64,000 nucleotides of DNA from Candidatus Omnitrophota bacterium (GTDB lineage Bacteria > Omnitrophota > Gorgyraeia > Zapsychrales > Fredricksoniimonadaceae): contig JAGWKL010000003.1 in the NCBI GenBank assembly GCA_028865345.1, positions 64,184-128,183 of the forward strand, in the 5' to 3' direction. A program made the translations under genes and the position numbers. Positions 1,669-16,974 of this stretch are shown here, one piece after another; position 1 is the stretch's first letter, and every line of letters starts with the position of its first letter. The notes below the pieces were generated by a model. That model was given only the letters and a program-made list of their open reading frames with translations. It searched no databases and was not told where the DNA came from.

Positions 1669-1923
1669 ATGAAACCTGTTGGCGCCTGCTGGGCGTATAT
1701 GGTACAGTGTAAACACGGTACTTTTTATACCGGCTGGACCAATGATTTAAAAAAGCGCATGGCGGCCCATGACGCGGGCAAGGGCGCCAAATATTTGCGG
1801 GGCAGGGGCCCGGTCAAGTTGGTTTATCGAAAAGAATGCCTGACCGTCGCCCAAGCGCAGGCCCTGGAAAGGTCCATCAAAAAACTTACCCGGAAAGAAA
1901 AAGAAGCGCTGGTCTTTTTATGA
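1669..1923 (+). CDS. Stand-alone GIY-YIG nuclease-domain protein (UPF0213/YhbQ-like)
   Basis: YMVQC..GTFYTGWTNDLKKRMAAH..GKGAKY motif block typical of GIY-YIG domain. 84 aa. Starts 2 nt after the mtaB stop. Confidence 0.8.
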   Translation: MKPVGACWAYMVQCKHGTFYTGWTNDLKKRMAAHDAGKGAKYLRGRGPVKLVYRKECLTVAQAQALERSIKKLTRKEKEALVFL

Positions 1924-3734
1924 ACAAACGTTTTGGATGGCTTTTATTGGTCCTTTTGGCGCTGGGCGGTGTTTTTGTATGGTGCCGCTTATCCCTGCCC
2001 CGCTATCAATTCATCAACCTTTCCGTCGGCCAGTCAAAAGCCCGGGAGATATCCCGGAAATTCTTGGAGACCAAATACGGGGTCAATGTCAATGCCTACA
2101 CATCCGCCGTATTATTCAACGCGGATGATAATGCGGACCAGTATTTGCAAAGGACTCTGGGTTTTTCCGGCGAGAGGAGTCTTGTCCACCGCCTGCATTA
2201 CGACTTGTTCTGCTGGGTCATCCGTTATTTCAAAGAGAAGCAAAAAGAGGAGTATAAGGTCGCGGTCAGCAGCGCCACCGGTGAGGTCATCGGTTTTAAC
2301 CATACGATCGCAGATACGGCCGCCAGGCCGCTGGTCGATAAACAACAGGCCCGCCAGAGGGCTCTTCAATTCTTGAAGACCGCTTATGGTTTTAATCCCG
2401 CCGGGTATACAGTCCATAGTGAAGACGTTCATAAGCTGGAGAACAGGGTGGAGTATGCTTTTACTTGGGAAAACAAGGACGTGCATATTCCCTGGAGCAA
2501 GGACAAAGCCCAGGGTTACGCCAAACTCCTGACCAATGTCACGGTCTCGGGCAATGAAATTCTTGATTTTAATAAGGCTTTTTTTAAAATTCCTGACGGG
2601 TTTAACCGTTATGTAGACTACCTGAAACAAACCGGCCAAAATCTCACCCTGGTGTTCCGCATCCTTTATCTGGTGCTTCTGACCCTGGCCATTATGGCGG
2701 TTGTCAACCGCAAGCAGCAGGTGGTCACACGTACCGTGAGGTCGTTTTATGTCGGCGTGGGGATCGCCTTGTTTATTTTGATGGTCCTGGACCTTTTAAA
2801 CGATTATCAGAGCATTTTATACAGTTACCCGACCACCCAGTCCATGGGTGATTATGTGGCCCGTCAGTTTATCGAAGGCACCATAGCTCCCTTTTTCATC
2901 GCGCTGGGGTTTATTTTACCCGCCCTGGCAGGGGAGTCCCTGAATTTTGAGGTTGCCCGTGAGAAAAAAAATGGGGCTTTTTTGAGCACCCTTTTGTCTT
3001 CCTTTCGCTCGCTGAATATCGCCCGCCAGATCGCGGTGGGATATTGCGCGGCCGCGATCATTCTGGGGACCCAGTCATTGATTTACAGTTTAGGATTCAA
3101 ATATTGCGGGGTATGGGATGAGTTGTCCTGGATGACTCAGGCCTCGACAAGCATTGTACCCGCCTTGACCGCCTTGGCCATTGCTTTTCAGGCTTCTTTT
3201 ACAGAGGAGACAATGTTCCGCATGTTTGCCATCAATCTGTTCAGGAAATACCGCGTGCCTGTGGCCCTGGCGGTGTTTTTGAGCGCCGCGATATGGGGAT
3301 TCGGACATACGGGATATGAAATTTATCCCATGTGGTTTCGGGGTGTCGAAGTCACCACCATCGGGCTTATCATGGGGTTCTTTTATTTGCGGTTTGGCCT
3401 GGTATGCGTGATCACCGCCCATTTTCTGATCGACGGGTTTTTATCGGCCCTGCCGTTTTTGTTGAATCCTCACCTGTCCTTTAATTTTGCCACCGCTTTG
3501 ACGGTGGTGGGCCTGCCTTTGATATTGGCCCTGGTCGCAATTGTGTTCAACAGAAATACTCCTGAGAGGCCCTTGAGCATCCGTTTTAATGTCCACCAGC
3601 AATTTACCTACCATTTGCTGATGGAATTATGCCGTCACAAGGGCCCTGAAGAATTAACGGCCTTTAAAAATGACCTTCAGCGCCATGGGTGGGACGCTGC
3701 GATCATCCAGAGGGTCTTTGAGGATGATACGTAG
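1920..3734 (+). CDS. Membrane protein with CPBP (CAAX) intramembrane metalloprotease domain and N-terminal extracytoplasmic domain
   Basis: EETMFRMF (EExxxR), FGFGH, and AHFLIDGF motifs of the CPBP/Abi family. Multiple hydrophobic segments. ATGA overlap with the upstream gene. Confidence 0.8.
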   Translation: MNKRFGWLLLVLLALGGVFVWCRLSLPRYQFINLSVGQSKAREISRKFLETKYGVNVNAYTSAVLFNADDNADQYLQRTLGFSGERSLVHRLHYDLFCWVIRYFKEKQKEEYKVAVSSATGEVIGFNHTIADTAARPLVDKQQARQRALQFLKTAYGFNPAGYTVHSEDVHKLENRVEYAFTWENKDVHIPWSKDKAQGYAKLLTNVTVSGNEILDFNKAFFKIPDGFNRYVDYLKQTGQNLTLVFRILYLVLLTLAIMAVVNRKQQVVTRTVRSFYVGVGIALFILMVLDLLNDYQSILYSYPTTQSMGDYVARQFIEGTIAPFFIALGFILPALAGESLNFEVAREKKNGAFLSTLLSSFRSLNIARQIAVGYCAAAIILGTQSLIYSLGFKYCGVWDELSWMTQASTSIVPALTALAIAFQASFTEETMFRMFAINLFRKYRVPVALAVFLSAAIWGFGHTGYEIYPMWFRGVEVTTIGLIMGFFYLRFGLVCVITAHFLIDGFLSALPFLLNPHLSFNFATALTVVGLPLILALVAIVFNRNTPERPLSIRFNVHQQFTYHLLMELCRHKGPEELTAFKNDLQRHGWDAAIIQRVFEDDT

Positions 3735-3778
3735 TAATTCTTATTGACCGAATGCCGGGGTTGTTTTATATTTACGCT

Positions 3779-4162
3779 ATGAAGAAAATCTCCAGGATTT
3801 TTGTCGCTTTCTTGCTGGCCGTATCATTGGTTGTCTCAACGGTCATCTGCTGCTGCATTGCACCGGCGGTGGCAGCGCACTTTCAAAAGGAAGCCGCCTG
3901 CAGCCATTGTATGGGGCATAAAGCCTCCGGCCGGCCTTCAGATCCTCTATGCCCTCAGCAATTAATGAGCGCAGATTTTCTTCATGCGCCGGCGTTAACA
4001 TTTTCTGAAAGCACAGGCGGTTTTTCATTTACGCCGGTATTGTTTGTCGGTCATCATCCCGTTTTAACGCGTTTAATATTATCAGTCCATCCGCCCGGGG
4101 GGCCGCCCCTGGGCATGGATTTTATTCCGCTTTACCTTAGGACCTTCCAGTTACGCATTTAA
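3779..4162 (+). CDS. Hypothetical Cys/His-rich small protein with N-terminal hydrophobic segment
   Basis: ORF only; no RBS. CCCIAPAVAAHF..CSHCMGH cluster suggests possible metal binding. Start ambiguous (ATG 3752 or 3779). Confidence 0.3.
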   Translation: MKKISRIFVAFLLAVSLVVSTVICCCIAPAVAAHFQKEAACSHCMGHKASGRPSDPLCPQQLMSADFLHAPALTFSESTGGFSFTPVLFVGHHPVLTRLILSVHPPGGPPLGMDFIPLYLRTFQLRI

Positions 4163-4259: not shown

Positions 4260-4589
4260 ATGAACATCAAACCATTAGTTTTGATCTTAGGCGTTTTAAC
4301 CTTGTCAGGAGGGTTTGTTTTTGTCCAACAAAGCGCTGCCGCCGTCAAACCGAAAATTGTCGTCGTTGACAACACTGATCCAGCCAAGGCTGTGGAAGTA
4401 GGCAATAAAATTTGTCCCGTCGACGGCCTTAAGATCAGTGACGACGGGGCCATGGGCGGTGGGCCTGTCAAAATCGCTTATAAAGGCAGGATATATAACC
4501 TTGATTGTCCCATGTGCATTAAGGCTTTCGAAAACAACCCCGAAAAGTACAGCGCCATTGCCGAGAAGGAAGTTGGTGCGGGCAAGTAG
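4260..4589 (+). CDS. Secreted YHS-domain (TRASH-like) putative metal-binding protein
   Basis: Strong RBS AAAGGAGAT. Signal peptide. CPVDG...YNLDCPMCIKAFENNPEKY matches the YHS pattern (CPVCGM..Y.FCS..C...F..nPekY). Confidence 0.8.
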   Translation: MNIKPLVLILGVLTLSGGFVFVQQSAAAVKPKIVVVDNTDPAKAVEVGNKICPVDGLKISDDGAMGGGPVKIAYKGRIYNLDCPMCIKAFENNPEKYSAIAEKEVGAGK

Positions 4590-4618
4590 CTGCAGGGAGA
4601 GCCGGCGGATAATTCATT

Positions 4619-5167
4619 ATGCAAGAACCTGAAAAACAAGACGCTTCAATGCTTTTGGAGCAGGCCCGTCAACTGGACGAAGCGGCTCTCGGTCAACTGG
4701 TCAGGGAATATTATCCGGCTGTGCTTCGGTTTTTGTCTTACCGTACGCGTAATCAGGAAGACGCCGAAGATCTGACCAGCGAGGTGTTTATACGGATGAC
4801 AGGGGCCATTAAAACCCAGACCGGGAATTTTGCCGCGTGGCTGTTTAAGATCGCGCGCAACCTGCTCATCGATTATTACCGTAAGATGGATCGCCGGAAA
4901 ACTTCATCGCTGGATGAGATGGAGGATGACAGCATCGCTGTGACCTCCCGCGACCATAGAGAAGGTTTTTCTGAAGATGAGATCAAAGGGATGTTGGCCG
5001 TTTTGACGGATGAACAGCAGGAAGCGGTCACCTTAAGGTTCCTGAATGGTTATTCTTTAGAGGAAACCGCCGGGATCATGCAAAAGTCTGTGGGGGCGGT
5101 CAAGCTGCTCCAGTTCCGCGCCATAGCCGCGTTAAAGGAGCATTTGAAAATAGACATCCAGGCTTGA
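4619..5167 (+). CDS. ECF-type RNA polymerase sigma-70 factor
   Basis: Sigma-70 region 2 (LVREYYPAVLRFLSYRTRNQEDAEDLTSEVF) and region 4 HTH (LEETAGIMQKSVGAVKLLQFRA). Confidence 0.85.
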   Translation: MQEPEKQDASMLLEQARQLDEAALGQLVREYYPAVLRFLSYRTRNQEDAEDLTSEVFIRMTGAIKTQTGNFAAWLFKIARNLLIDYYRKMDRRKTSSLDEMEDDSIAVTSRDHREGFSEDEIKGMLAVLTDEQQEAVTLRFLNGYSLEETAGIMQKSVGAVKLLQFRAIAALKEHLKIDIQA

Positions 5168-5261
5168 AAAAGCGCTTGCGTAACTTTTTGTTGTTGGCGG
5201 CGTCTTTATCAGTGAACATTTTGATCCCAATGGGGGGGTCAATAAAAAAAGCGAGGACGCT

Positions 5262-5534
5262 ATGAAAAAACAAATCACATTTTTATTAATCGGTTTAGGG
5301 TTGGTGGCTTTCAGCAGCTTGAGTTTTGCCGAGAGCCAACTCGGTAAAGGGATTAGGACTGTGGAGGGAACGATCGTGTCCGTGAATACTTCCAAGGATG
5401 TGGCTGTGATAAAGGATAATGCTGTTGCGCATTATTATACAGTTCGTGTTTTTCCGGATCAGATTGGTTCTATACAGGCCGGAGAAAACGTCACGGCTGT
5501 TTCTTATGGGAATGGACCATTGACCCTTAAATAA
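5262..5534 (+). CDS. Small secreted protein, possibly CusF-like OB-fold without canonical Met ligands
   Basis: Signal peptide. Beta-rich EGTIVSVNTSKDVAVIKDN...IGSIQAGENVTAVSY pattern. RBS GAGGA. Followed by a terminator. Confidence 0.5.
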   Translation: MKKQITFLLIGLGLVAFSSLSFAESQLGKGIRTVEGTIVSVNTSKDVAVIKDNAVAHYYTVRVFPDQIGSIQAGENVTAVSYGNGPLTLK

Positions 5535-5552
5535 CAGCAAACATTTAAATAT

Positions 5553-5590
5553 AAAAAGGGGGACATGCTATAATATGTCCTCCTTTTTAG
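5553..5590 (+). terminator. Rho-independent terminator after the sigma/small-protein unit
   Basis: AAGGGGGACAT-gctataat-ATGTCCTCCTTTTT inverted repeat followed by a T-run. Confidence 0.6.
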
Positions 5591-5654
5591 CGTAACTTTC
5601 TGAGATTTTAAACGCCTGCATCGTCAGTAGGAATAATGGTATGGGAATTTTAAT

Positions 5655-6920
5655 ATGCGTATTTTAGTTTCAATGCTGGTGTTGGTGTTTGTGTCCCAGG
5701 GCCTGACGTTTGCGCAAGATGCCAGGTCTCCCGTACATTTAAGCGGATTGATCAAGGAGGCTTTAAACAACAATCCGCAGATTTTAGCCGCTAAAGCGCG
5801 CTACGAAGCGGCCCGCGCCCGTGTAGCCTTTTTCCGTAATGTTCCGGATCCCATGGTCGAGTACGGCTATGACAAGATCATTCCCTCAATGATAGGCGCA
5901 GACGCAGCCAAGCCCATGAAGACTCTTTCGGTAACTCAACGAATCCCTTTTCCGACAAAACTTTTTTTGGAAAGGAAGGCGGCCAGGCAGGAAATGGATG
6001 CTCAAAAGCAGGATTATGAGGAAACCCGGCAACGTGTCATTGAACAGGTCAAGGACGCCTATGCTTCTTTGTTTGTCGCCCAACGTAAAATAGCATTCAC
6101 AAAAGACGATTTTGAACTGGCCGGACAGATGGCTAAGGCTGCAGAGGTACGGTATTCGGCCAATCGGGATTCTCAAATTGACCTTTTACGGGCCCAAGCA
6201 GAGCAGGAAAAGATCATGGTACAGCAAAAAGAATTTGAGCAGGACCGTGTCATTGCCGTCAGTTTGCTGGCCTCTTTGCTTAACAAGGCCCCGCAGGATT
6301 TAGGAGATATTGATACGCATGAGAATGCAAAGGGAGAAGACCTTTCTGAAGAAAATGTGATTAAGAGGATCAAACAGGACCGTCCGGAATTGAAGTCTTT
6401 TAGGGCCATACTGGATCAAACCAGGACGAAATACTCCTTAAGTAAACAAAGCTTGTTACCGGACATAACGCTTACCTATCAGCACCAAGAGCAAAACGGC
6501 AGCTTCGGAAGAGGGCAATGGGCGGGTATGGTAGGTTTTACGATTCCACTTTGGTTTTGGGGCAAACAGGCGCCCGAGATCGTGGAAGCCCGCGCCGACC
6601 TTCGCGCCGCCCAGGCCGATTACCAGGCCGAGGAGAATACAGCCATTTTCGAAGGCAGGAGCGCTTTAGCAAAAGTTAAGGCGGCTCGTGAAGTGGTGGA
6701 ACTTTATGAGAAAGGGATTTTGCCGAGGGCCGAATCGGTGGTTGTCACGGACCGTGTGGCTTATGAGGCCTCAACAGGTGATTTTACCGAATATATAGCG
6801 GCTTTTAAGGCCCTTCGGGATTTTCAAATGGAATATGCGCAAGCCCTGGCTGGTTTGGCCGTTGCCAAGGCGGATTTGGACCGGGCCATAGGCGGGGATA
6901 TTGTATCTAAGGGGGAATGA
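5655..6920 (+). CDS. Outer-membrane efflux protein, TolC/CusC/CzcC family
   Basis: Signal peptide. Coiled-coil and beta-barrel OEP repeats (LIKEALNNNPQILAAKARYEAARARV). First gene of a cusCBA-like operon. Confidence 0.85.
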   Translation: MRILVSMLVLVFVSQGLTFAQDARSPVHLSGLIKEALNNNPQILAAKARYEAARARVAFFRNVPDPMVEYGYDKIIPSMIGADAAKPMKTLSVTQRIPFPTKLFLERKAARQEMDAQKQDYEETRQRVIEQVKDAYASLFVAQRKIAFTKDDFELAGQMAKAAEVRYSANRDSQIDLLRAQAEQEKIMVQQKEFEQDRVIAVSLLASLLNKAPQDLGDIDTHENAKGEDLSEENVIKRIKQDRPELKSFRAILDQTRTKYSLSKQSLLPDITLTYQHQEQNGSFGRGQWAGMVGFTIPLWFWGKQAPEIVEARADLRAAQADYQAEENTAIFEGRSALAKVKAAREVVELYEKGILPRAESVVVTDRVAYEASTGDFTEYIAAFKALRDFQMEYAQALAGLAVAKADLDRAIGGDIVSKGE

Positions 6921-6921
6921 A

Positions 6922-7926
6922 ATGAAAAAGTTCACATGGGTCATGATTTTCTTATTGATAGCTTGCGCCGCGGGAAGTCAAAATGCGTTCAGCCAGACTA
7001 AGAGAAAGATCCTTTATTATCGAAATCCGATGGATCCTTCGGTGACATCGCCTGTTTTTATGAAGGATTCGATGGGAATGGACTATATTCCCGTTTACGC
7101 CAAAGAACCTTCACAAGCTCAAAAGGTATCAGGTATTCATGTGCCCCTGCAACAGCAACAGCTTATCGGTCTTAAGACAGGGCTTGTCGAGAAGCGCGAT
7201 TTGATTTATGAGATCCGCGCATCGGCCCAAGTAGCCTTTGATCCTGACCTGTTTGTCGCCCAAACGAGTTATATCGAGGCGTTAAAAACATTAAAAGAAA
7301 CTGCGAACGGTTCGGATGCTTTTCTCAATGGACAATCTAAATCCCTTTTGGAAGCCAGCCGCCGCAATCTTTATCTTGAGGGCATGAGCGACAGCGAGAT
7401 CGATGAGCTGGCAAAAACGGGCAAAGCGGATGATAGTTTGTATTATCCCGGCACTTTGCCTACGGCATGGGTCTACGCCGCCATTTACGAGAACGAGGCC
7501 TTGATGACCAAGCCTGGCCAGAAGGTCACCTTTGAACCTCTGGCTTTTCCCGGAAAAATGTTCCATGGGATTGTGGCCGGAGTTTCTCCCATCTTGGATG
7601 CCCGGACGCGTACCGTGCGTTTGAGGATCAGGGTCGATGACCCCAAGAAAGAATTGCGTCCTCAAATGTTCGGAACGGCGTTGATTTCCGTTGATCTGGG
7701 AAAGAAACTGGCTGTTGACCAGGACGCTGTTTTGAACACGGGAATGAAGCAAATTGTTTACGTGGTCCATAAAGGGAATATTTTTGAAATGCGAAAGGTG
7801 ACCTTGGGCACAGAAGCCAAAGGTTATTATGAAGTTCTGTCAGGTCTTCAAGAAGGTCAGAAGGTCGTCACCAGTGGTAATTTCATGATTGACTCAGAAA
7901 GCAGGATTGAAGGGTTTACCAAATGA
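6922..7926 (+). CDS. cusB: RND efflux periplasmic adaptor, CusB/CzcB-like
   Basis: N-terminal YYRNPMDPSVTSPVFMKDSMGMDYIPVY metal-binding motif typical of CusB/SilB, then HlyD-family domains. RBS AAGGGGGAA. Confidence 0.85.
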   Translation: MKKFTWVMIFLLIACAAGSQNAFSQTKRKILYYRNPMDPSVTSPVFMKDSMGMDYIPVYAKEPSQAQKVSGIHVPLQQQQLIGLKTGLVEKRDLIYEIRASAQVAFDPDLFVAQTSYIEALKTLKETANGSDAFLNGQSKSLLEASRRNLYLEGMSDSEIDELAKTGKADDSLYYPGTLPTAWVYAAIYENEALMTKPGQKVTFEPLAFPGKMFHGIVAGVSPILDARTRTVRLRIRVDDPKKELRPQMFGTALISVDLGKKLAVDQDAVLNTGMKQIVYVVHKGNIFEMRKVTLGTEAKGYYEVLSGLQEGQKVVTSGNFMIDSESRIEGFTK

Positions 7927-10900
7927 TTAAAAAAGTCATCGAGTTTTCGGCAAATAATAAATTCTTGATTTTGATCATCATAGCGGCGGCCATAGTGGGG
8001 GCCATTATGGCTGTACGCAACATCCCTCTTGATGCCATTCCGGACCTTTCAGATACCCAGGTCATCGTTTATTCCCGCTGGAACCAGTCACCGGACATCA
8101 TGGAAGACCAGGTGACCTATCCCATCGTGACCGCGATGTTGGGCGCCCCTGATGTCAAAGCCATCAGGGGCTTTTCAGATTACGGTTATTCCTACGTCTA
8201 TATTATTTTTAAAGACGGGACAAACTTGTATTGGGCGCGCAGCCGCACATTGGAATATCTCAGCAAGGTCCTTCCCGCCCTGCCCAAAGGCGTTAAGACC
8301 GAATTAGGCCCGGATGCAACGTCCGTCGGGTGGGTCTATCAATATGCTCTGGTGGATAAAAGCGGCAAAAATGACCTTTCCCAATTGCGGTCTTTCCAGG
8401 ACTGGTATCTGCGTTATTGGCTGCAGTCTGTTCCGGGAGTCGCGGAAGTGGCATCAGTCGGGGGATTTCAAAAACAGTATCAGGTCAACGTCGATCCCGT
8501 GGCCCTGCAGGCGTATAACATCCCTATCACTAAGGTCATTGAGGCGGTACGTCGCAGTAATAATGATGTGGGGGCGAGGGTGGTGGATTTTTCCGGCACC
8601 GAATTCATGGTCCGCGGACGCGGGTATATCAAATCCACCAAGGACATAGAGAACATTGTTTTACGGACGGATTCTCACGGCAGGCCGGTTTTGGTGCGTG
8701 ATGTGGCAACAGTGACAACGGGCCCACAGATGCGCAGGGGTGTGACTGATCTGAATGGACAAGGGGACACAGTGGGCGGCATCGTGATCATGCGTTCGGG
8801 AGAAAATGCTCTAAATGTCATCAACCGGGTCAAACAGAAGCTCAAAGACATTCAGCCCTCGCTTCCGCCGGGCGTTAAGATCGTGACAACCTATGACCGC
8901 TCAGACCTTATCATGCGTGCGATCGATACGCTCAAACATCAGCTTATTGAGGAAATGATCATTGTCAGCTTGGTGATCATTTTTTTTCTGTGGCATTTCC
9001 CGTCAGCCAGTGTGCCGATTGCCACCATCCCTGTGGCAGTGCTTTTGTCCTTTATACCGATGTATGCCATGAAATTGACGTCCAATATCATGTCGCTAGC
9101 CGGTATCGCGATTTCCATCGGTGTTTTGGTGGACGGCGCCATCATCATGGTGGAGAACGCTTACAAAAAGACCCAATTGTGGGAAGCTTCGGGGCGCAAG
9201 GAGAATTACCATGACGTTTTGTTGACGGCTCTTAAAGAAGTGGGGCCGTCGATTTTCTTTTCTCTTCTTGTGATCGCGGTGTCATTTTTGCCGGTCTTCA
9301 TGCTGGTCGGTCAGTCAGGCAGGCTTTTCAGGCCCCTGGCCTTCAGCAATAACTTTACGATGGTCATTGCCGCGGTTTTGTCGGTCACCTTTGTTCCGGC
9401 TATGTTTGTGCTTTTGGTGCGGGTCAACGAGGCTCATTTCCGTCCGAAATGGCTGTCGAAACTTTATAATTTTTTACGCGTAGGCCATTATTATCCGGAG
9501 GAAAAACATCCGGTCAGCAAGGTCCTGTTTAATTTTTATGAACCTGTCTGCCGGTTCGTGCTCAAATACCGTGTCCAGACTTTGATTTTTGCCGGAATGA
9601 TCTTCTTGTCTATGATACCGGTTTATTTAAAGTTGGGATCGGAGTTTATGCCGCCTTTGAATGAGGGGACCATTCTTTATATGCCCACCACCTTGCCCGG
9701 GATATCAGTGACAGAAGCCCAAAAAGTTCTTCAGGAAACGGACAAGATCATCCGTACTGTGCCTGAGGTCCAAAGCGTGTTCGGCAAGGCCGGGCGGGCC
9801 GATACATCGACCGATCCGGCACCCTTATCAATGATGGAGACAACCATCGTCCTTAAACCGGAATCGCAATGGCGCAAGGTCCATCGCTGGTATTCGTCGT
9901 GGATGCCCGGATTCCTTCAAGGGTTTTTCCGTCCCATTTGGAATGACCGGATCACATGGCAGGACATCATCAATGAGCTTGATGAGAAAGTCAGACTACC
10001 GGGGTTGTCGAACGCATGGACCATGCCTATCAAAACACGTATTGACATGCTTTCAACCGGTATCAGGACTCCGGTGGGGATAAAAATTTTAGGCCCGGAT
10101 TTAAATGAGATAGAACGCATAGGTGTCAAGATCGAGAACATCGTCAAGCATATCAAAGGCGCCAGAAGCGTTTACGCGGAGCGCGTAACAGGCGGATATT
10201 ATCTGGATTATGATTTTAACTCTAGTGCTTTGGCCAGTTACGGATTGACGATCGGCGATGTGGAGGATGTGATTGCGTCGGCCATCGGCGGCGAAACAGT
10301 GACCACGACCGTTGAAGGCCTGGAAAGGTATTCCGTCAATGTCAGGTATTTGCGTCAGCTGCGTGATGATATCCCAAGCCTGGAGCGCATCCTGGTGTCC
10401 ACGCCCAATGGGGCGCAGGTACCGTTGGGACAACTGGCAAAGTTGAAATTTGTCCAGGGACCGGGCATGGTTCGCAATGAAAACGGCATGCCTGCCGGTT
10501 ATGTCTATGTGGACATGGCCGGCCGTGATATCGGCGGTTTTGTGCGGGACGCCAAACAGGCGGTTGATAAGGGGCTTAAACTGCCTTCAGGGTATACACT
10601 CATCTGGAGCGGGCAGTATGAGAACATGATCCGGGTCGCCCAGCGGATGAAGGTGATCATTCCCATCGCGCTTTTTATTATTTTTATGCTGTTGTACATG
10701 AATACCCGTTCGCACGTCAAAGCGGGAATAGTCCTGTTGGCGGTGCCTTTTTCTTTGGTGGGAGCCGTATGGTTTCTTTATTTTCTCCACTATAATTTAT
10801 CTGTCGCGGTGTGGGTGGGGATGATTGCCCTCATGGGGCTTGATGCGGAAACCGGTGTTTTTATGCTGCTTTTTCTGGATTTAGCTTATTATCAGGCCAT

Positions 10901-11216
10901 ACGTCTTGGCAAAATGAAAACGAACGCTCAGCTTCAGGAGGCCATTGTACAGGGAGCGGTCAAGCGCATTCGTCCCAAGCTTATGACGGTCAGCGCCATG
11001 TTTATGGGGCTTGTTCCCATTATGTGGTCCATAGGGGCAGGATCTGATGTGATGAAACGTATTGCGGCTCCCATGATCGGAGGTATCTTCAGCAGCTTCA
11101 TTATGGAGCTTTTAATCTATCCGGTCATTTACTATCTTTGGAAATGGAATTACGAGATGAAAAAGGGCTCCGTGGACGTCAGCAAGCTGCCCCTACCAGA
11201 GCTAAAGGGGCATTAA
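7923..11216 (+). CDS. cusA: Heavy-metal efflux RND permease, CusA/CzcA (HME-RND) family
   Basis: 1097 aa with 12-TM RND architecture. N-terminus MIKKVIEFSANNKFLILIIIAAAIVGAIMAVRNIPLDAIPDLSDTQVIVYS is typical of CusA. ATGA overlap with cusB. Confidence 0.9.
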   Translation: MIKKVIEFSANNKFLILIIIAAAIVGAIMAVRNIPLDAIPDLSDTQVIVYSRWNQSPDIMEDQVTYPIVTAMLGAPDVKAIRGFSDYGYSYVYIIFKDGTNLYWARSRTLEYLSKVLPALPKGVKTELGPDATSVGWVYQYALVDKSGKNDLSQLRSFQDWYLRYWLQSVPGVAEVASVGGFQKQYQVNVDPVALQAYNIPITKVIEAVRRSNNDVGARVVDFSGTEFMVRGRGYIKSTKDIENIVLRTDSHGRPVLVRDVATVTTGPQMRRGVTDLNGQGDTVGGIVIMRSGENALNVINRVKQKLKDIQPSLPPGVKIVTTYDRSDLIMRAIDTLKHQLIEEMIIVSLVIIFFLWHFPSASVPIATIPVAVLLSFIPMYAMKLTSNIMSLAGIAISIGVLVDGAIIMVENAYKKTQLWEASGRKENYHDVLLTALKEVGPSIFFSLLVIAVSFLPVFMLVGQSGRLFRPLAFSNNFTMVIAAVLSVTFVPAMFVLLVRVNEAHFRPKWLSKLYNFLRVGHYYPEEKHPVSKVLFNFYEPVCRFVLKYRVQTLIFAGMIFLSMIPVYLKLGSEFMPPLNEGTILYMPTTLPGISVTEAQKVLQETDKIIRTVPEVQSVFGKAGRADTSTDPAPLSMMETTIVLKPESQWRKVHRWYSSWMPGFLQGFFRPIWNDRITWQDIINELDEKVRLPGLSNAWTMPIKTRIDMLSTGIRTPVGIKILGPDLNEIERIGVKIENIVKHIKGARSVYAERVTGGYYLDYDFNSSALASYGLTIGDVEDVIASAIGGETVTTTVEGLERYSVNVRYLRQLRDDIPSLERILVSTPNGAQVPLGQLAKLKFVQGPGMVRNENGMPAGYVYVDMAGRDIGGFVRDAKQAVDKGLKLPSGYTLIWSGQYENMIRVAQRMKVIIPIALFIIFMLLYMNTRSHVKAGIVLLAVPFSLVGAVWFLYFLHYNLSVAVWVGMIALMGLDAETGVFMLLFLDLAYYQAIRLGKMKTNAQLQEAIVQGAVKRIRPKLMTVSAMFMGLVPIMWSIGAGSDVMKRIAAPMIGGIFSSFIMELLIYPVIYYLWKWNYEMKKGSVDVSKLPLPELKGH

Positions 11217-11285
11217 ATCGGCATAACTTTTGGCGGGATAGATCGTCTATAATTATGAGAGGCAGTACTTACAAAGGTTTATTTT

Positions 11286-12092
11286 ATGGATAAGAGACCG
11301 ATAGAAGATATATTCAATGAGTGCTATGAGAAGATGCTTGCCGGCATGCCTGCAGAAGAGATCATTCGGCAGTATCCTAATCATGCCAAGGAGTTAAAAG
11401 AACTCCTTGGTGTCGCCCAAAGTGTGAGCCACACGCCGCCCGTAAGGGTTTCAGATCAGAAACTGTTTTCCTGTCTGATCAAGGTAGGGGAAGAGATCCA
11501 AAGGCAAAAGGAGAGGTCTCTTTCGTCGAAGCTCAATCGGTTGTTTGTCTTTGCCTCACCGGCCTGGGCGCGCGGGTTTGCCCTGACCCTTGTCATTGTT
11601 TTTGCTGCCTGGGGCACGGTGAATGCGTCTGCCAACAGCCTGCCAGGCAGCCCTTTATATCTGGTAAAGCTCTTGGGTGAGAAGGCAAGTTATTTTCTGA
11701 CCGTCAATCCCCAGGGTCAACTGGAGTTAAAGATCACTTTTTCCGAAAGACGTTCAAAAGAACTGGTCAAAGAGTTCAATAAAACCGGCCATGTTGATAT
11801 CCAGACCCTTAAAAGGATGCTGAATGAAGCAGGGGATTCATTAAATGAGGTGGCTAAGCTGCCTGTTAAAGGACAAAAAATTTATCTTGTCCAACTTAAA
11901 TATTTGAATGACTATCAGAAAGATGTTCTTCAAGACCTTCAAAGCAGGGCGCCCCAAGTTCAGAAAGCCAAATTGGAACAGGCCATTACCATTTGCAATC
12001 AGCGTTGCCGATGGCTGCAAATGGCATGCGACCGGGGCTGTGTAACTTCCATGCGCGGTTGTCCGTGCCCCCTTCCATCAAAAAATATTTGA
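11286..12092 (+). CDS. Membrane protein with anti-sigma-factor-like topology and C-terminal Cys cluster
   Basis: Cytoplasmic helical N-domain, single TM (LFVFASPAWARGFALTLVIVFAAWG), periplasmic helical domain. C-terminal cluster ends CNQRCRWLQMACDRGCVTSMRGCPCP. Confidence 0.6.
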   Translation: MDKRPIEDIFNECYEKMLAGMPAEEIIRQYPNHAKELKELLGVAQSVSHTPPVRVSDQKLFSCLIKVGEEIQRQKERSLSSKLNRLFVFASPAWARGFALTLVIVFAAWGTVNASANSLPGSPLYLVKLLGEKASYFLTVNPQGQLELKITFSERRSKELVKEFNKTGHVDIQTLKRMLNEAGDSLNEVAKLPVKGQKIYLVQLKYLNDYQKDVLQDLQSRAPQVQKAKLEQAITICNQRCRWLQMACDRGCVTSMRGCPCPLPSKNI

Positions 12093-12176
12093 TAAAAATC
12101 AGGCCAAATACGCTAAAATAGCGGAAAACGAAGCGGCGGTGAAGCAATCGCCGTTAAATAATTTAAGGAGGACTCT

Positions 12177-12566
12177 ATGAAGAAATTGATCGCGTTGGCA
12201 GCGGTATTGGTCTTAAGCTCAGCAGTGGTTTTTGCTCAAGATACTTCATCGAATAAGAATGTAAATGGCACGACCGACAAGCCAAGTATGATGGACCAAG
12301 GCGGCATGATGGGCCAGGGCATGATGGGACCAGGCATGATGCATAAGGGCATGATGATGCACGGCATGATGATGAGAATGATGAACGCTTCCATGGTCGC
12401 CACCTCCGATGGAGGGGTAGTTGTTTTTACCGGTGACAGGCTCATCAAATATGACAAGGACTTAAATGTCGTCAAGGAAGTCAAGATAAAGGGGTATATG
12501 CCGGCCTGGGAGAAAACATGCCCCATTATGAATCCTGGCATGATGAAGGCTGAAGGAAAATCCTAG
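12177..12566 (+). CDS. Secreted methionine-rich putative Cu(I)/Ag(I)-binding protein
   Basis: Strong RBS AGGAGG. Signal peptide. MMDQGGMMGQGMMGPGMMHKGMMMHGMMMRMM Met motifs like those of CusF/PcoC/CopA periplasmic Cu-binding proteins. Stop abuts the ATPase ATG. Confidence 0.8.
   Translation: MKKLIALAAVLVLSSAVVFAQDTSSNKNVNGTTDKPSMMDQGGMMGQGMMGPGMMHKGMMMHGMMMRMMNASMVATSDGGVVVFTGDRLIKYDKDLNVVKEVKIKGYMPAWEKTCPIMNPGMMKAEGKS
12289..12384 (+). repeat. Coding microsatellite of (GGC/CAG)-ATG-ATG units encoding the Met-rich motifs
   Basis: ggcatgatg / ggcatgatgatg units iterate about 9 times in frame. Confidence 0.7.
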
Positions 12567-14792
12567 ATGCCCAAAGACCCCATATGCGGCATGGATGTGG
12601 ATGAAAGCTCGCCTTTGAAACTTGAGAAAGACGGGCAGGTGTATTATTTTTGTTCAGGCCATTGTAAGGAAAAATTCTTAAAAGAAGCACAATCCCATCC
12701 TAAGCCCCAAGCTTCTGCCTTACCATTGAAGGGCAGGACCTTGTACACCTGCCCCATGCATCCTGAAATTGAACAGGGTCATCCTGGCGACTGCCCTAAA
12801 TGCGGCATGGCGCTCGAGCCCAAAAGTCCGTTGGTGGAGCAGGAGCAGCCGGCGGAATCACACGAGATCAACTTTTTAAGGAAGAAATTCTGGATAGGGG
12901 TATGGTTGACCCTGCCTGTTGTTTTTCTGTCTTTAACGGCCAAGGCTATGCCTGATGCCGTCCGTTACCTCCAATGGGCCCTGGCTTCCATCGTGGTTTT
13001 TTATTGCGGCGGATTCTTGTTGGCCAAAGGATGGCAATCTATCGTCCACCGGCATTTGAACATGTTCACCCTTATAGGCCTGGGTGTCATCGTTGCTTAT
13101 AGCTACAGCACCGTGGTATTATTTTTGTCCCCCCCATCATATCTTTATTTTGAATCAGCTTGCGCCATTACGGTCCTGGTCATTTTAGGCCAATGGCTTG
13201 AGGCGCGGGCCCGTGGACAAACCGGCCAGGCCATTCAAAGCCTTTTAGGCCTTGCCGCTAAAGAAGCCCACCTGATCAAAGACGGCAGGGAAGAACAAGT
13301 CCCGGTTGATCAGGTCCAAAAAGGGGATCTTTTGCGGGTCAAGCCGGGGGAGAAGATCCCTTTGGACGGGATCATTGTGGAAGGCCGAAGCAGCATCGAT
13401 GAATCCATGATCTCCGGTGAGCCCATGCCCGTCGAGAAAAACACCGGAGACCGCGTCATCGGGGCAACGGTCAACCAGACCGGTAGCTTTGTCATGAGAA
13501 CGGAGAAAATCGGATCGGAAACCCTGCTTTCCCAGATCGTTCATATGGTCTCCGAAGCCCAGCGCAGCCGCGCGCCCATCCAGGGCCTGGCAGACCGGGT
13601 GGCCGGTTATTTTGTGCCTGCCGTCATTATCATTGCCGTCATTACTTTTTTCGTCTGGCTTTTCGTCGGGCCGCAGCCTGCTTTGACCTATGCGTTGGTT
13701 AACTCTATTGCGGTCGTGATCATTGCCTGTCCGTGTGCCCTGGGATTGGCAACACCGATGTCGATCATGGTGGGTGTGGGCCGGGGCGCACAGGCAGGCA
13801 TTTTAATCAAGAATGCCCAAGCCATTGAAAGGGCAGAAACAGTGACCCATGTTCTGGTGGATAAAACCGGGACCCTGACTGAAGGCAGGCCTAAAGTAAC
13901 AGCTTTGATCGGTCCGCAACCTCTGGAGGCGCTTGGTCTCGCGGCGTCAATGGAGCAAAACAGCGAGCATCCTTTGGCCGGCGCCGTCATGAATTATGCC
14001 AAAGAAAAAGGGGTCAAGATCGAAGCTGTACGGCACTTTGAATCCATAACCGGCGCGGGCGTCAGAGGGCAGGTCAATGGAAAGACCGTTCTCATCGGCA
14101 AACAGAAGTTCATCGAGGAATCAGGTGCCGTTATCCCGGAAGATTTGAAAAAAGAAGCTTCGCAAATGCAGGACAATGCGCAGACGGTTGTATGGGTGGC
14201 TACTGAAGGCAAGGCCTTGGGGATTTTTGGGATTTCTGACCCTATCAAGAAAACAACGGCGGATGCCATTCGCGCCCTGCATGGTATGGGATTGAAAATT
14301 ATCATGCTTACCGGCGATAACCGCAAAACAGCGGAGGTTGTAGCTAAACAACTGGGCATCGATCAGGTGGAGGCGGAATTAAACCCCCAAGGCAAACAAA
14401 ATATCGTCAGGACCTTCAGGGACCAGGGAGCCATCGTCATGATGGCAGGGGACGGCATCAATGACGCTCCGGCCCTGGCCCAGGCGCACGTGGGGGTTGC
14501 CATGGGAACAGGGACGGATGTTGCGATTGAATGTGCCGGCATGACCCTGGTCAAAGGCGATTTAAACGGCATCGTTAAAGTTTTAGGCTTAAGCCGTGCC
14601 GTCATGCATAATATCCGCCAGAATCTTTTCTTCGCGTTCATCTATAACGCTTTGGGTATCCCCATCGCCGCCGGTGTTCTTTATCCGTTTTTCGGGTTAT
14701 TGCTCAATCCCATTATCGCGGGCGCGGCCATGAGTTTCAGCTCGGTGTCCGTGATAACCAACGCCTTGCGTTTACGTCGTTTTCGGCTTTAG
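12567..14792 (+). CDS. copA: Cu+/Ag+-type P1B heavy-metal translocating ATPase with N-terminal YHS and CPMHPE/CPKCGM motifs
   Basis: CPC transmembrane motif ([13 protein letters not shown]). DKTGTLT phosphorylation site. GDGINDAP motif. N-terminal DPICGMDVD...[12 protein letters not shown] (YHS) and [22 protein letters not shown]. Confidence 0.9.
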
Positions 14793-14831
14793 GTTTTTAA
14801 AAGGAGAAATCATTAAGGAGGCTCAAAGGAA

Positions 14832-16013
14832 ATGACTTTTAAGAAAAGTATCGCCCGGCTGGCTTTCCAGTTTGTTTTTCTTATAGGGATAGTCAATTTT
14901 TTTGCCGACTTCACTTATGAAGGGGCCAGGAGCATCAACGGCGCTTTCTTATCCAGCTTGGGAGCCAGCGCCGTTGCCGTCGGGTTTATAGCAGGTTTTG
15001 GCGAGTTGATAGGGTACGGTTTGCGCTCACTGACAGGATTTTGGGCCGGCAAAACCCATCAGTATTGGATTTTTGCCATCATTGGCTATGCCATCAACAT
15101 GTTTGCCGTGCCTGCGATGGCCTTGGCAGGCAACTGGCCGATGGCCGCCTGCCTCATCATCGCCGAGCGTACCGGCAGGGCCGTCAGGAAACCTTCCGTC
15201 GAGACAATGCTTTCCTTTGCAGGCAAAGAATTGGGCAGCGGCTGGGTCTTCGGGCTCAATGAATTTATGGACCAATTCGGCGCCACCATAGGCCCTTTGA
15301 TCGTGGCATGGGTGCTGCTTACCAAACACAGTTACAAATATGGCTATGGCGTTCTTTTGATATCAGCGCTTTTATGTCTGGCCATGATCTTCACATCCAG
15401 GCTGTTTTTCCCCAAACCGCAGGAGCTGGATAAAAAAGAGCCGGTGATTTTAGAGCCCAAGGGTTTTACCAGGGCCTATTGGCTTTATGTGCTGGGCGGG
15501 GCCTTGATCGCTGCGGGGTTCGCGGATTTCGCGCTGATGGCGTTTCATTTTGACAGGACACATGCTGTTCCCATGCCATGGATCCCGATTTTTTACGCCA
15601 TAGCCATGGCCACCGGTGGGATCAGCGCTCTTATTATGGGCAGGTTGTTGGACAAATGGGGTCCCAAGATCATGATGCTTGCTTTTTTAGTGGGGGCCCT
15701 GTTTGCGCCGTTCGTTTTTTGGGGGAACTTTTCTTTAATACTCGCCGGGATGATCTTCTGGGGCGTCGGCTTGGGCGCCCAGGAATCCCTTCTTAAAGCA
15801 ACGCTGTCACATATGACTTCCCGGGACAAAAGAAGTGCCGCCTTCGGTGTTTTTGATACGGCTTTCGGCATTGCCTGGTTTTTGGGAAGCGCTGCGATGG
15901 GCATCCTGTATGCCTGGTCGCTCGTGGCCATGATCATTTTTTCCGTGGCCCTGCAGATGGCCGCCTTGCCTGTATTTATGATGGCCTTCAATAAGCAAAA
16001 GACGCACTCCTAA
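14832..16013 (+). CDS. MFS transporter
   Basis: About 12 predicted TM segments. GRLLDKWGPK-type MFS loop motif. RBS AAGGAGG. Confidence 0.8.
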   Translation: MTFKKSIARLAFQFVFLIGIVNFFADFTYEGARSINGAFLSSLGASAVAVGFIAGFGELIGYGLRSLTGFWAGKTHQYWIFAIIGYAINMFAVPAMALAGNWPMAACLIIAERTGRAVRKPSVETMLSFAGKELGSGWVFGLNEFMDQFGATIGPLIVAWVLLTKHSYKYGYGVLLISALLCLAMIFTSRLFFPKPQELDKKEPVILEPKGFTRAYWLYVLGGALIAAGFADFALMAFHFDRTHAVPMPWIPIFYAIAMATGGISALIMGRLLDKWGPKIMMLAFLVGALFAPFVFWGNFSLILAGMIFWGVGLGAQESLLKATLSHMTSRDKRSAAFGVFDTAFGIAWFLGSAAMGILYAWSLVAMIIFSVALQMAALPVFMMAFNKQKTHS

Positions 16014-16123
16014 AAGCGGTGCCTGTCCCCGGATTCGGGGGCCGCGCTGGTACTTGAATTCATAAATAAATAAGTTAAAATGATTTTTGTTGAAACAGGA
16101 ACAGGATAAGAAAGGATGGGATC

Positions 16124-16486
16124 ATGAGAAGAATAGCGTTGATAGGACTTACAGTAATTGCTTTAGTATTTTTAAACGGCTCTGTGCTGGTTTGGGCCCA
16201 ACAGACGGCCAAGGTCACCGGTGAAGTGGTGGACACCTATTGCTTTGTGACCATGGGCGCCAGGGGCGAAGGCCACCGTCAATGCGGCCTGGGATGCGCC
16301 CACAAAGGGATTCCCGTCGGTATTGTGGAAAACGGTACCAATAAGCTCTATGTTTTATTGCCGAACAAAAACGACACTTCTCTGTCCAAAGATGTCATCA
16401 ACAAAATGGGCCGGACAGCCACCGTGACAGGCAAGGTATATGCCAACGGCGGCAGCCAATTCCTGACAGTGGAGTCTGTCAGTTGA
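16124..16486 (+). CDS. Secreted Cys/His-containing small protein (possible metal site: C40,H51,C54,C58,H60)
   Basis: Signal peptide. YCFVTMGARGEGHRQCGLGCAH cluster. RBS AAAGGATGGG. Confidence 0.6.
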   Translation: MRRIALIGLTVIALVFLNGSVLVWAQQTAKVTGEVVDTYCFVTMGARGEGHRQCGLGCAHKGIPVGIVENGTNKLYVLLPNKNDTSLSKDVINKMGRTATVTGKVYANGGSQFLTVESVS

Positions 16487-16974
16487 TGAACTTATTGGCC
16501 AAGCTGCTGCCAGGTGCGGGGAACCTTCAAAACCTGCATCCTTTGGCAGTGCATTTCCCCATTGCCTTTTTGACAGCAGCGGGGTTTATCTATGTCTTGG
16601 CTTACGTGTTGCGCCGTGACGCGTGGGCCAGGACAGCTTTCTGGTTTTTAGGGCTTGGCTGCCTCACCGCCGCCGTCGCCGTCATGACGGGGCTTTATGC
16701 GGCCGGCGGCGTCATGGTGGCAAAATCCGTCCGGCAGCATTTGCTCCATGCCCACAAGTTGTGGATGCTGGCGACTTTTTATTTGAGTGCTATCTTGACA
16801 TTATGGGCGGCTTTCACAAATGGTTTTCCCAAAAAAGGCCGCCTGATTTTTGTGGTTTTATCTCTCATCCTTATCGCCGTCATGGTCAAGGGGGCTGATT
16901 ACGGCGGGCGGATGGTTTTTGATTATAATGCCGGAGGGGATGCTTGCGGCCAGCCGATAGAATTCAGCCACTGA
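16486..16974 (+). CDS. DUF2231-like integral membrane protein
   Basis: HPLAVHFPIA signature. 4-5 TM segments. Start overlaps upstream stop (TGATG). Confidence 0.7.
   Translation: MNLLAKLLPGAGNLQNLHPLAVHFPIAFLTAAGFIYVLAYVLRRDAWARTAFWFLGLGCLTAAVAVMTGLYAAGGVMVAKSVRQHLLHAHKLWMLATFYLSAILTLWAAFTNGFPKKGRLIFVVLSLILIAVMVKGADYGGRMVFDYNAGGDACGQPIEFSH

Follow-up and report, generated by a model that had tools for sequence, protein, structure and literature searches.

A methionine-rich secreted protein encoded next to copA in an Omnitrophota genome: an unannotated family with a repeat tract that differs by one unit between strains

What is a small secreted protein, with a tract in which almost every second residue is methionine, doing directly upstream of a copper-exporting ATPase? 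The question is raised by a gene on a 64,000-nt stretch of a Candidatus Omnitrophota genome (‘the window’: positions 64,184 to 128,183 of the forward strand of contig JAGWKL010000003.1, assembly GCA_028865345.1). The gene encodes a 129-aa protein – MKKLIALAAVLVLSSAVVFA followed, after the predicted cleavage site, by QDTSSNKNVNGTTDKPSMMDQGGMMGQGMMGPGMMHKGMMMHGMMMRMMNASMVATSDGGVVVFTGDRLIKYDKDLNVVKEVKIKGYMPAWEKTCPIMNPGMMKAEGKS – and lies within one co-directional cluster (4260–16974), between cusCBA-type genes and copA, the gene of a P1B-1 ATPase (Table 1). We lean towards reading the protein as a periplasmic sponge or chaperone for Cu(I)/Ag(I) that works with the CopA pump its gene precedes. Our analysis directly supports the structure of the gene, the conservation of the family, predicted disorder next to a folded core, linkage to copA and a one-unit length polymorphism; a chaperone role is a reasonable interpretation of the position between cusCBA and the ATPase and of the enrichment of copA near the family across species.

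Met-rich tract, conserved core and linkage to copA

An earlier reading of the window, made from the letters alone (hereafter the sequence-only reading), had placed a gene at 12177–12566 on the plus strand, and the list of open reading frames (ORFs) bears this out. At 100% identity the encoded protein matches MDE2009029.1, a hypothetical protein from a Candidatus Omnitrophica metagenome-assembled genome (MAG). As read from the sequence, its N-terminus carries the hallmarks of a signal peptide (a basic N-terminus, a hydrophobic core and a V-F-A motif), and A20 is nearly invariant in the family alignment. The protein contains 22 Met overall, 21 of them among the 109 residues of the predicted mature form; at 19.3%, as compared to a background of 3.1% Met in nine neighbouring genes, the extreme enrichment described by the sequence-only reading stands, while its figure of 21% does not. 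In the AlphaFold2 (AF2) model, residues 21–70 have block-mean predicted local distance difference test (pLDDT) scores of 42–58, with residues 19–50 almost entirely below 50, and the core forms a four-stranded antiparallel meander with block-mean pLDDT of 92–97.

A word-index search with the window protein retrieved 168 homologues, and a full hidden Markov model search retrieved 1,173 representatives of 50%-identity clusters at E≤1e-3, 985 of them at E≤1e-10. Pfam (searched at E≤0.1 and E≤10 for the window protein) and NCBIfam (at E≤1) offered no consistent family for the protein or for 104 relatives. Judged by these profile searches, the protein belongs to a genuine, unannotated family of about 1,000 clusters at 50% identity. 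The architecture begins with a signal peptide, followed by a Met/Gly tract that often closes in MCPMM and a core with the consensus (S/V)VATSDGGVVVxxGNKLxKYDKDLNxVKEVE, in which the family alignment shows no variation at D78, G79, G80, K91 and D93 and hardly any at Y92. In most members the core is followed by DMxxMQKMMxxMxxCPMM and an acidic tail terminating in (D/E)HxSHH. The C-terminus of the window protein is shortened: CPIM and GMM are kept, and the helix segment and the His tail are gone. In the AF2 model of a canonical member, P0003, Met-rich helices flank the meander (block-mean pLDDT 84–97 over residues 61–110). Foldseek searches of the PDB with the models of the window protein and P0003 gave no significant match (all E≥0.07); as the best matches were generic single propeller blades and beta-meanders (root-mean-square deviation of about 1 Å over 33–38 residues), we do not claim a propeller fold.

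Core and tract behave differently within the family. The core is 32 aa long in 104 of 104 members, with no indels; the tract ranges from 22 to 77 aa, with 31 distinct lengths, and its composition is constant among the same members at 33% Met, 22% Gly and 13% Lys, which suggests selection on the composition of the tract and not on its sequence. The hosts are mostly Omnitrophota and Planctomycetota (Sedimentisphaerales, Phycisphaerae and Pirellulales), with a few in Fibrobacter, Syntrophales and Auribacterota. Some members (P0121, P0123, P0127, P0142, P0145 and P0181) carry two or three complete tract-core-helix modules in tandem; in the 349-aa P0123 an N-terminal cytochrome c domain (CASCHG) is fused to two modules.

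To survey the neighbourhood of the family, we called genes in 79 loci, 78 from species-representative genomes and one from the window, and clustered all neighbours up to four genes away on each side. The only strongly recurrent neighbour is copA: it is present in 17 of the 79 loci, and in 13 it is the next gene downstream on the same strand (11 of the 68 loci that have at least 1.5 kb of downstream DNA). Relatives in loci L001, L003 and L005 lie near CopA and Cus genes. Among the remaining recurrent neighbours, histidine kinases and response regulators (12 loci each) are generic, and minor ones include a PEMT/ICMT-like methyltransferase, DUF5676, a small YHS protein, DUF2231, an ArsP permease and resistance-nodulation-division (RND) pumps. 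The copA-linked members are richer in Met than the rest (median 17% vs 13%) and in MM pairs (5 vs 2.5), and the (E/D)HxSHH tail is found in 11 of 13 of them vs 7 of 66 others; in these traits they look more like metal proteins.

In the window the two genes touch. As the sequence-only reading had stated, the TAG stop codon at 12564–12566 abuts the ATG of the ATPase gene at 12567, and this ATG is the true start, since orthologous CopA proteins open alike (M-x-x-DPICGM). Across the loci the stop-to-start gaps to copA are 0, 3, 8, 8, 9, 9, 14, 17, 21, 39, 63, 182 and −17 nt; by this comparison, the TAG-ATG junction is the tight end of a general pattern, mostly 0–21 nt. Directly adjacent stop and start codons are the arrangement expected by position of a coupled gene pair, and the sequence is consistent with translational coupling of the Met-rich gene and copA. 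Read-through of the TAG into a CopA fusion we reject although the two ORFs share a frame, because an exported domain would then precede the cytoplasmic YHS and HMBD domains of CopA, and because the orthologous junctions are not consistently in frame. On the 5′ side, a scan of the 84-nt gap upstream of the Met-rich gene for promoter and terminator consensus sequences found nothing convincing, and co-transcription with the upstream genes is possible.

Could the Met/Gly tract be a mere flexible low-complexity linker or tether, with any specific function, whether or not it concerns metals, residing in the beta core and the CP(M) motif and with the unit polymorphism described below being neutral instability? 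The 32-aa core is indeed the sole part conserved in sequence, tract length drifts between 22 and 77 aa, many members lie away from metal genes and low-complexity regions are generally prone to indels. A neutral linker is, however, not expected to remain Met-rich, and the Met content of the tract stays at about 33% in 104 members even though Met is scarce and costly, with a local background of 3.1%; furthermore, the tract is Met-richest precisely in the copA-linked subset. We therefore consider the linker explanation unlikely.

Another explanation would make the protein a periplasmic metal-sensing accessory of an extracytoplasmic function (ECF) sigma factor pathway that includes the DUF5667 protein, acting in signalling and not in trafficking. 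Genes for both an ECF sigma factor and a DUF5667 protein with a Cys-rich tail are present in the same cluster, and, as described above, family members recurrently have histidine kinases and response regulators nearby. These kinases and regulators are, however, very abundant families with no fixed position relative to the gene, DUF5667 stands beside the family only in the species of the window and in locus L075, and the tight, positionally fixed partner is copA, all of which makes a sensing role decidedly improbable.

Repeat array and length variation between strains

The sequence-only reading had described the DNA of the tract as a near-perfect 9-nt ggcatgatg microsatellite. What we find instead is an imperfect array: the exact GGCATGATG recurs in phase five times, at 12303, 12318, 12333, 12348 and 12363, each copy being followed by 6 nt of variable bases, so that the units encode GMMGQ, GMMGP, GMMHK, GMMMH and GMMMR. 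With five cores spaced by variable 6-nt spacers the period is 15 nt, and Tandem Repeats Finder likewise reports a period of 15 (4.4–4.6 copies, 76–77% matches); the repeat is thus head-to-tail with a period that is a multiple of three. A sixth copy of GGCATGATG is found at 12537, and a scan of both strands of the 64 kb found no further one. As Met has one codon only, the ATGATG portion of the core is forced; the unforced signal is the GGC codon, which precedes MM in six of six cases vs a local GGC usage of 40%. An antisense ORF at 12236–12541 (minus strand, 101 aa, Ile/Pro/Met-rich: IIMPCIIMPLCIMPGPIMPWPIMPP) is a shadow of the ATG/CAT repeat, and we do not regard it as a gene.

Sister alleles were found through protein-cluster look-up. 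The 90%-identity cluster of the window protein has one other member, the 134-aa P0250, which is present in three MAGs and in one assembly of a Sequence Read Archive (SRA) run and is identical to the window protein save for one additional GMMGQ. The accessions concerned are GCA_028870875.1, GCA_028866185.1 and GCA_028871075.1 for the MAGs and SRR32006849 for the run. We compared the DNA of the corresponding loci (L088–L091, from four other assemblies of the same species) with positions 2177–22566 of the window, i.e. 20.4 kb. The loci are 99.3–99.7% identical to the window, with 5–54 substitutions according to the length compared, and the sole indel is a second copy of GGCATGATGGGCCAG, a perfect single unit set against 20–54 substitutions in the 20.4 kb. 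As the array takes up 75 nt of this length, the chance that an indel placed at random falls inside it is about 0.4%. The family offers a similar case in a second cluster, where a single GMMKE unit separates the 145-aa P0265 from the 140-aa P0101, P0266 and P0267. Length differences elsewhere in the 90% clusters mostly stem from alternative starts or truncated contigs, and P0265 vs P0101 is the only true unit indel in that comparison. Metagenome contigs of the Joint Genome Institute (JGI), scanned for exact DNA matches to the right flank of the tract, yielded none.

The short allele is present in one assembly only, the MAG of the window, and the 15-nt difference could in principle be an artefact of assembly or consensus calling and not a true allele. 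The perfect period-15 repeat, however, spans just 26 nt in the long allele and 12 nt in the short, well under read and k-mer lengths, which makes assembly collapse unlikely; the four long-allele assemblies differ mutually by 3–35 single-nucleotide polymorphisms (SNPs) and are therefore independent; and a like unit indel exists in the second cluster. We regard an artefact as highly improbable. The sequence-only reading had predicted that slippage would change the number of Met motifs in frame and had proposed to look for repeat-length polymorphism across strains: the comparison of assemblies reveals just such a change between near-identical strains, with a unit of 15 and not 9 nt, and the slippage prediction is, in silico, supported.

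The SNPs that separate the window from its sister strains are themselves strongly clustered elsewhere, at 1836–3734 of the window. This 632-aa CAAX-protease/Rce1-like plus DUF4901 gene makes up about 9% of the 20.4 kb compared, yet 27 of the 49 SNPs that distinguish the window from L088 lie in it, as do 27 of the 54 that distinguish it from L089. This clustering suggests that the gene is locally hypervariable or recombined.

Proposed role and relation to known copper and silver proteins

How might such a protein work? We propose that Sec would export it and that the signal peptide would be removed, leaving a mature form with a disordered Met/Gly tail of G-M-M-x-x units, a rigid four-stranded beta module and a short Met/Cys C-terminus (CPIM...GMM). 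The thioethers, aided by His56, His62 and Cys115, could hold Cu(I)/Ag(I) in numerous ligand sets that are soft and independent of oxidation, with a docking surface or a defined site contributed by the beta core and the CP(M) motif. Once CopA has released the ion into the periplasm, the protein would take it up and either buffer it, as a SilE-like sponge, or pass it to CusB/CusA, as a CusF-like chaperone; in principle such a scheme agrees with the known behaviour of SilE and CusF. The gene would be co-transcribed with copA and probably linked to it translationally via the TAG-ATG junction. Slipped-strand mispairing or unequal recombination could add or remove whole GMMxx units in frame, and the number of binding motifs would consequently vary between strains and species. 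Export, metal binding, partners, translational coupling and the adaptive value of unit number are the parts of this scheme that we infer.

Several observations weigh against the sponge or chaperone reading. Over half of the loci that carry the family lack any recognisable metal gene within 10 kb, and the family may thus have a broader or a different core function. The relatives found are almost all from uncultured MAGs, and the window protein itself is without the C-terminal Met helix and His tail that are usual in copA-linked relatives. Adjacent Met-Met pairs are not known as a classical characterised Cu(I) motif, such as MxM, MxxM or the H/M/M/W site of CusF. Finally, the strain-level variation is one two-allele polymorphism and no demonstration that unit number matters for fitness. 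On the other side, no ORF of the cluster matches the CusF, SilE/PcoE or CopK models of Pfam and NCBIfam, so the role of chaperone or sponge would otherwise be unfilled there. That the protein is instead a sacrificial methionine sink for copper-stress oxidants, repaired by Msr enzymes, is very doubtful: in E. coli, MsrPQ repairs Met-rich copper proteins of the periplasm that have become oxidised, CusF among them (PMC9302797), but no msr gene was seen beside the gene in the window or the loci examined, the hosts belong mostly to anaerobic lineages, and the conserved core, the CPM motif and the His tail would be left unexplained.

The protein resembles SilE and PcoE in its small size, its predicted export by Sec and an operon that it shares with genes for a P1B ATPase and a CusCBA-type RND pump, and in its long, predicted-disordered Met-rich region with scattered His and many potential soft-metal sites. 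Motifs of SilE/PcoE are of the MxxH/HxxM type, and those found here are G-M-M-x-x. The window protein further differs by its confidently folded beta core (AF2) and by the occurrence of the family in Omnitrophota and Planctomycetota and not on enterobacterial plasmids. SilE is a disordered periplasmic Ag+ sponge, and the sil operon also encodes SilP and SilCFBA (PMC5008109). The SilE/PcoE models gave no NCBIfam match at E≤1 and no Pfam match to the window protein, and likewise none to the 104 relatives. The likeness lies in functional traits (tract pLDDT of 42–58, 47% Met, location in a Cu/Ag efflux cluster): a resemblance and not membership.

CusF is a Cu+ chaperone that uses Met, His and Trp and feeds CusB (PMC3817396). 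Like CusF and SilF, the Met-rich protein is a small, beta-rich periplasmic protein with Met ligands from a similar genomic niche beside cusCBA, and it could fill the same role, carrying Cu(I) from CopA to the RND pump. CusF_Ec (PF11604), however, matched neither the window protein at E≤10 nor any of the 104 relatives. The H-x7-W-x2-M-x-M pattern of the CusF Cu(I) site is absent, the sole Trp being W111 in PAWEK: where CusF and SilF have one defined H-x-W-x-M-x-M site, the Met-rich protein has many Met. The predicted fold is a four-strand meander and not the five-strand OB barrel of CusF.

CopK of Cupriavidus metallidurans (PDB 2k0q; PF11525) is likewise a small periplasmic Met-rich protein of copper clusters with an all-beta core; its metal is Cu(I)/Cu(II). 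It is the sole PDB sequence match of the family profile (E=0.21 over 45 residues), with a 30-residue core stretch, M-x5-V-A-T-S-D-G-G-V-V-V-x-x-G-N-x-L-x-x-x-D-x-x-L, that aligns with CopK METRDGTKIIMKGNEIFRLDEAL. This weak lead does not support homology: hhalign gives a probability of 44% with one CopK sequence alone, which collapses to 8% with a 14-sequence CopK family profile. PF11525 matches 0 of the 104 members, CopK is not among the top 50 Foldseek matches of the AF2 models, and its four Met ligands are not positionally conserved in the Met-rich family. We therefore do not file the protein under CopK, CusF or SilE/PcoE; on the profile and model searches the family appears separate from all three, similar in that it too would consist of Met-rich periplasmic copper proteins.

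Met repeats are also present in extracytoplasmic regions of other copper proteins – CopA and CopB of Pseudomonas syringae, the Met-rich insert of CueO and the ‘Mets’ motifs of Ctr1 – where they presumably bind or funnel Cu(I). Those are inserts in enzymes or transporters, whereas here the repeats account for roughly one third of a small protein that stands alone, and a strain-level copy-number polymorphism is documented.

More broadly, the handling of periplasmic Cu(I)/Ag(I) between ATPase and RND pump is known mainly from the proteobacterial CusF, SilE/PcoE, CopK, CopC and CueP, and oxygen-dependent copper oxidases would be of little use in anaerobes. In Omnitrophota, Planctomycetota and related uncultured anaerobes, an unrelated and unannotated family of about 1,000 clusters appears to take that role. 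Tentatively, and with more doubt than confidence, we suggest that the window protein is the founding example of a large unrecognised family of the PVC superphylum (Planctomycetota-Verrucomicrobiota-Chlamydiota and allies), made up of modular periplasmic metallochaperones or sponges whose number of Cu(I)/Ag(I) binding units would be tuned on short evolutionary timescales by in-frame 15-nt slippage. If this is true, the modules consist of the GMMxx tract, the 32-aa beta core and the Met helix/CPMM/His tail, sometimes two or three in tandem or fused to cytochrome c, and the tract is a contingency-like locus for metal-buffering capacity and not for on/off phase variation. Apart from this suggestion, the locus is a clean natural example of a predicted metal-binding tract changing by whole repeat units between near-identical strains, and a family model would improve the annotation of copper and silver resistance determinants in metagenomes. 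With two natural alleles of 129 and 134 aa, the relation between motif number and metal capacity is directly testable.

The gene cluster and its other members

The genes that surround the Met-rich gene, together with the features discussed above, are listed in Table 1. The ATPase scores 627 bits with TIGR01511 (cut-off 397) and carries the motifs CPC, YN and MxxSS at residues 388, 693 and 722, as P1B-1 ATPases do.

Table 1. Features of the Met-rich gene, its junction with copA and the surrounding cluster (window coordinates)
Feature	Position	Strand	Remarks
Small secreted YHS protein	4260–4589	+	YHS/TRASH domain, 109 aa
ECF sigma factor	4619–5167	+	
Secreted protein, 90 aa	5262–5534	+	
Outer membrane factor (OMF), cusC-like	5655–6920	+	Pfam
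CusB-like adaptor	6901–7926	+	Pfam
CusA/CzcA-family heavy-metal RND pump	7923–11216	+	Pfam; TIGR00914 1072 bits vs cut-off 701
DUF5667 membrane protein, Cys-rich C-terminus	11286–12092	+	Pfam PF18915, E=1.3e-7
Shine-Dalgarno AAGGAGG of Met-rich gene	12165–12171	+	Strong, 5 nt before ATG; read in sequence
Met-rich secreted protein gene	12177–12566	+	129 aa; ORF list; member of unannotated family
Predicted Sec signal peptide MKKLIALAAVLVLSSAVVFA	12177–12236	+	Cleavage before Q21 (VFA/Q); read from sequence
Met/Gly-rich tract SMMDQGGMMGQGMMGPGMMHKGMMMHGMMMRMMN	12285–12386	+	aa 37–70; 16 Met and 8 Gly in 34 residues (47% Met); predicted disordered
Imperfect 15-nt tandem array	12303–12377	+	Five G-M-M-x-x units, each opening with exact GGCATGATG
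Polymorphic unit GGCATGATGGGCCAG (GMMGQ)	12303–12317	+	One copy in window, two in L088–L091; placement ambiguous within 12303–12329
Conserved folded core SMVATSDGGVVVFTGDRLIKYDKDLNVVKEVK	12390–12485	+	aa 72–103; four-stranded antiparallel beta-meander in AF2 model
C-terminal CPIMNPGMM	12519–12545	+	Reduced version of family CPMM/Met-rich C-terminal segment
AAGGA, possible copA Shine-Dalgarno	12553–12557	+	Inside end of Met-rich ORF, 9 nt before ATG; read in sequence
Stop/start junction TAG-ATG	12564–12569	+	0 intergenic bases, both genes in same frame
P1B-1 Cu+/Ag+ exporting ATPase (CopA-like)	12567–14792	+	Pfam; N-terminal YHS and HMBD domains
Major facilitator superfamily (MFS) transporter	14832–16013	+	
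Secreted protein, 120 aa	16124–16486	+	
DUF2231 membrane protein	16483–16974	+	

Several other ORFs of this region deserve mention. The 90-aa secreted protein between the ECF sigma and OMF genes is beta-rich, and its gene occupies roughly the place of CusF in cusCFBA; neither Pfam nor NCBIfam matches it, and it lacks Met ligands. The DUF5667 protein, whose gene separates cusA from the Met-rich gene, terminates in a Cys-rich tail, CNQRCRWLQMACDRGCVTSMRGCPCP, and is kept in the sister strains and in locus L075 (E=2e-104), where it lies upstream of the OMF gene. Just 5′ of the YHS gene, a 136-aa ORF without a family match (3752–4162) encodes a membrane segment with CCC followed by HFQKEAACSHCMGH. 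The 120-aa secreted protein, also without a family match, contains Cys and His residues (CFVTMGARGEGHRQCGLGCAH), and its stop overlaps the DUF2231 start at 16483. Finally, small secreted YHS/TRASH proteins and DUF2231 membrane proteins are repeatedly found together in the vicinity of the Met-rich family gene, Cus and CopA in Omnitrophota and Planctomycetota (the window and loci L005, L011, L017, L024, L046, L059, L069 and L082), and this pair may belong to the same copper module.

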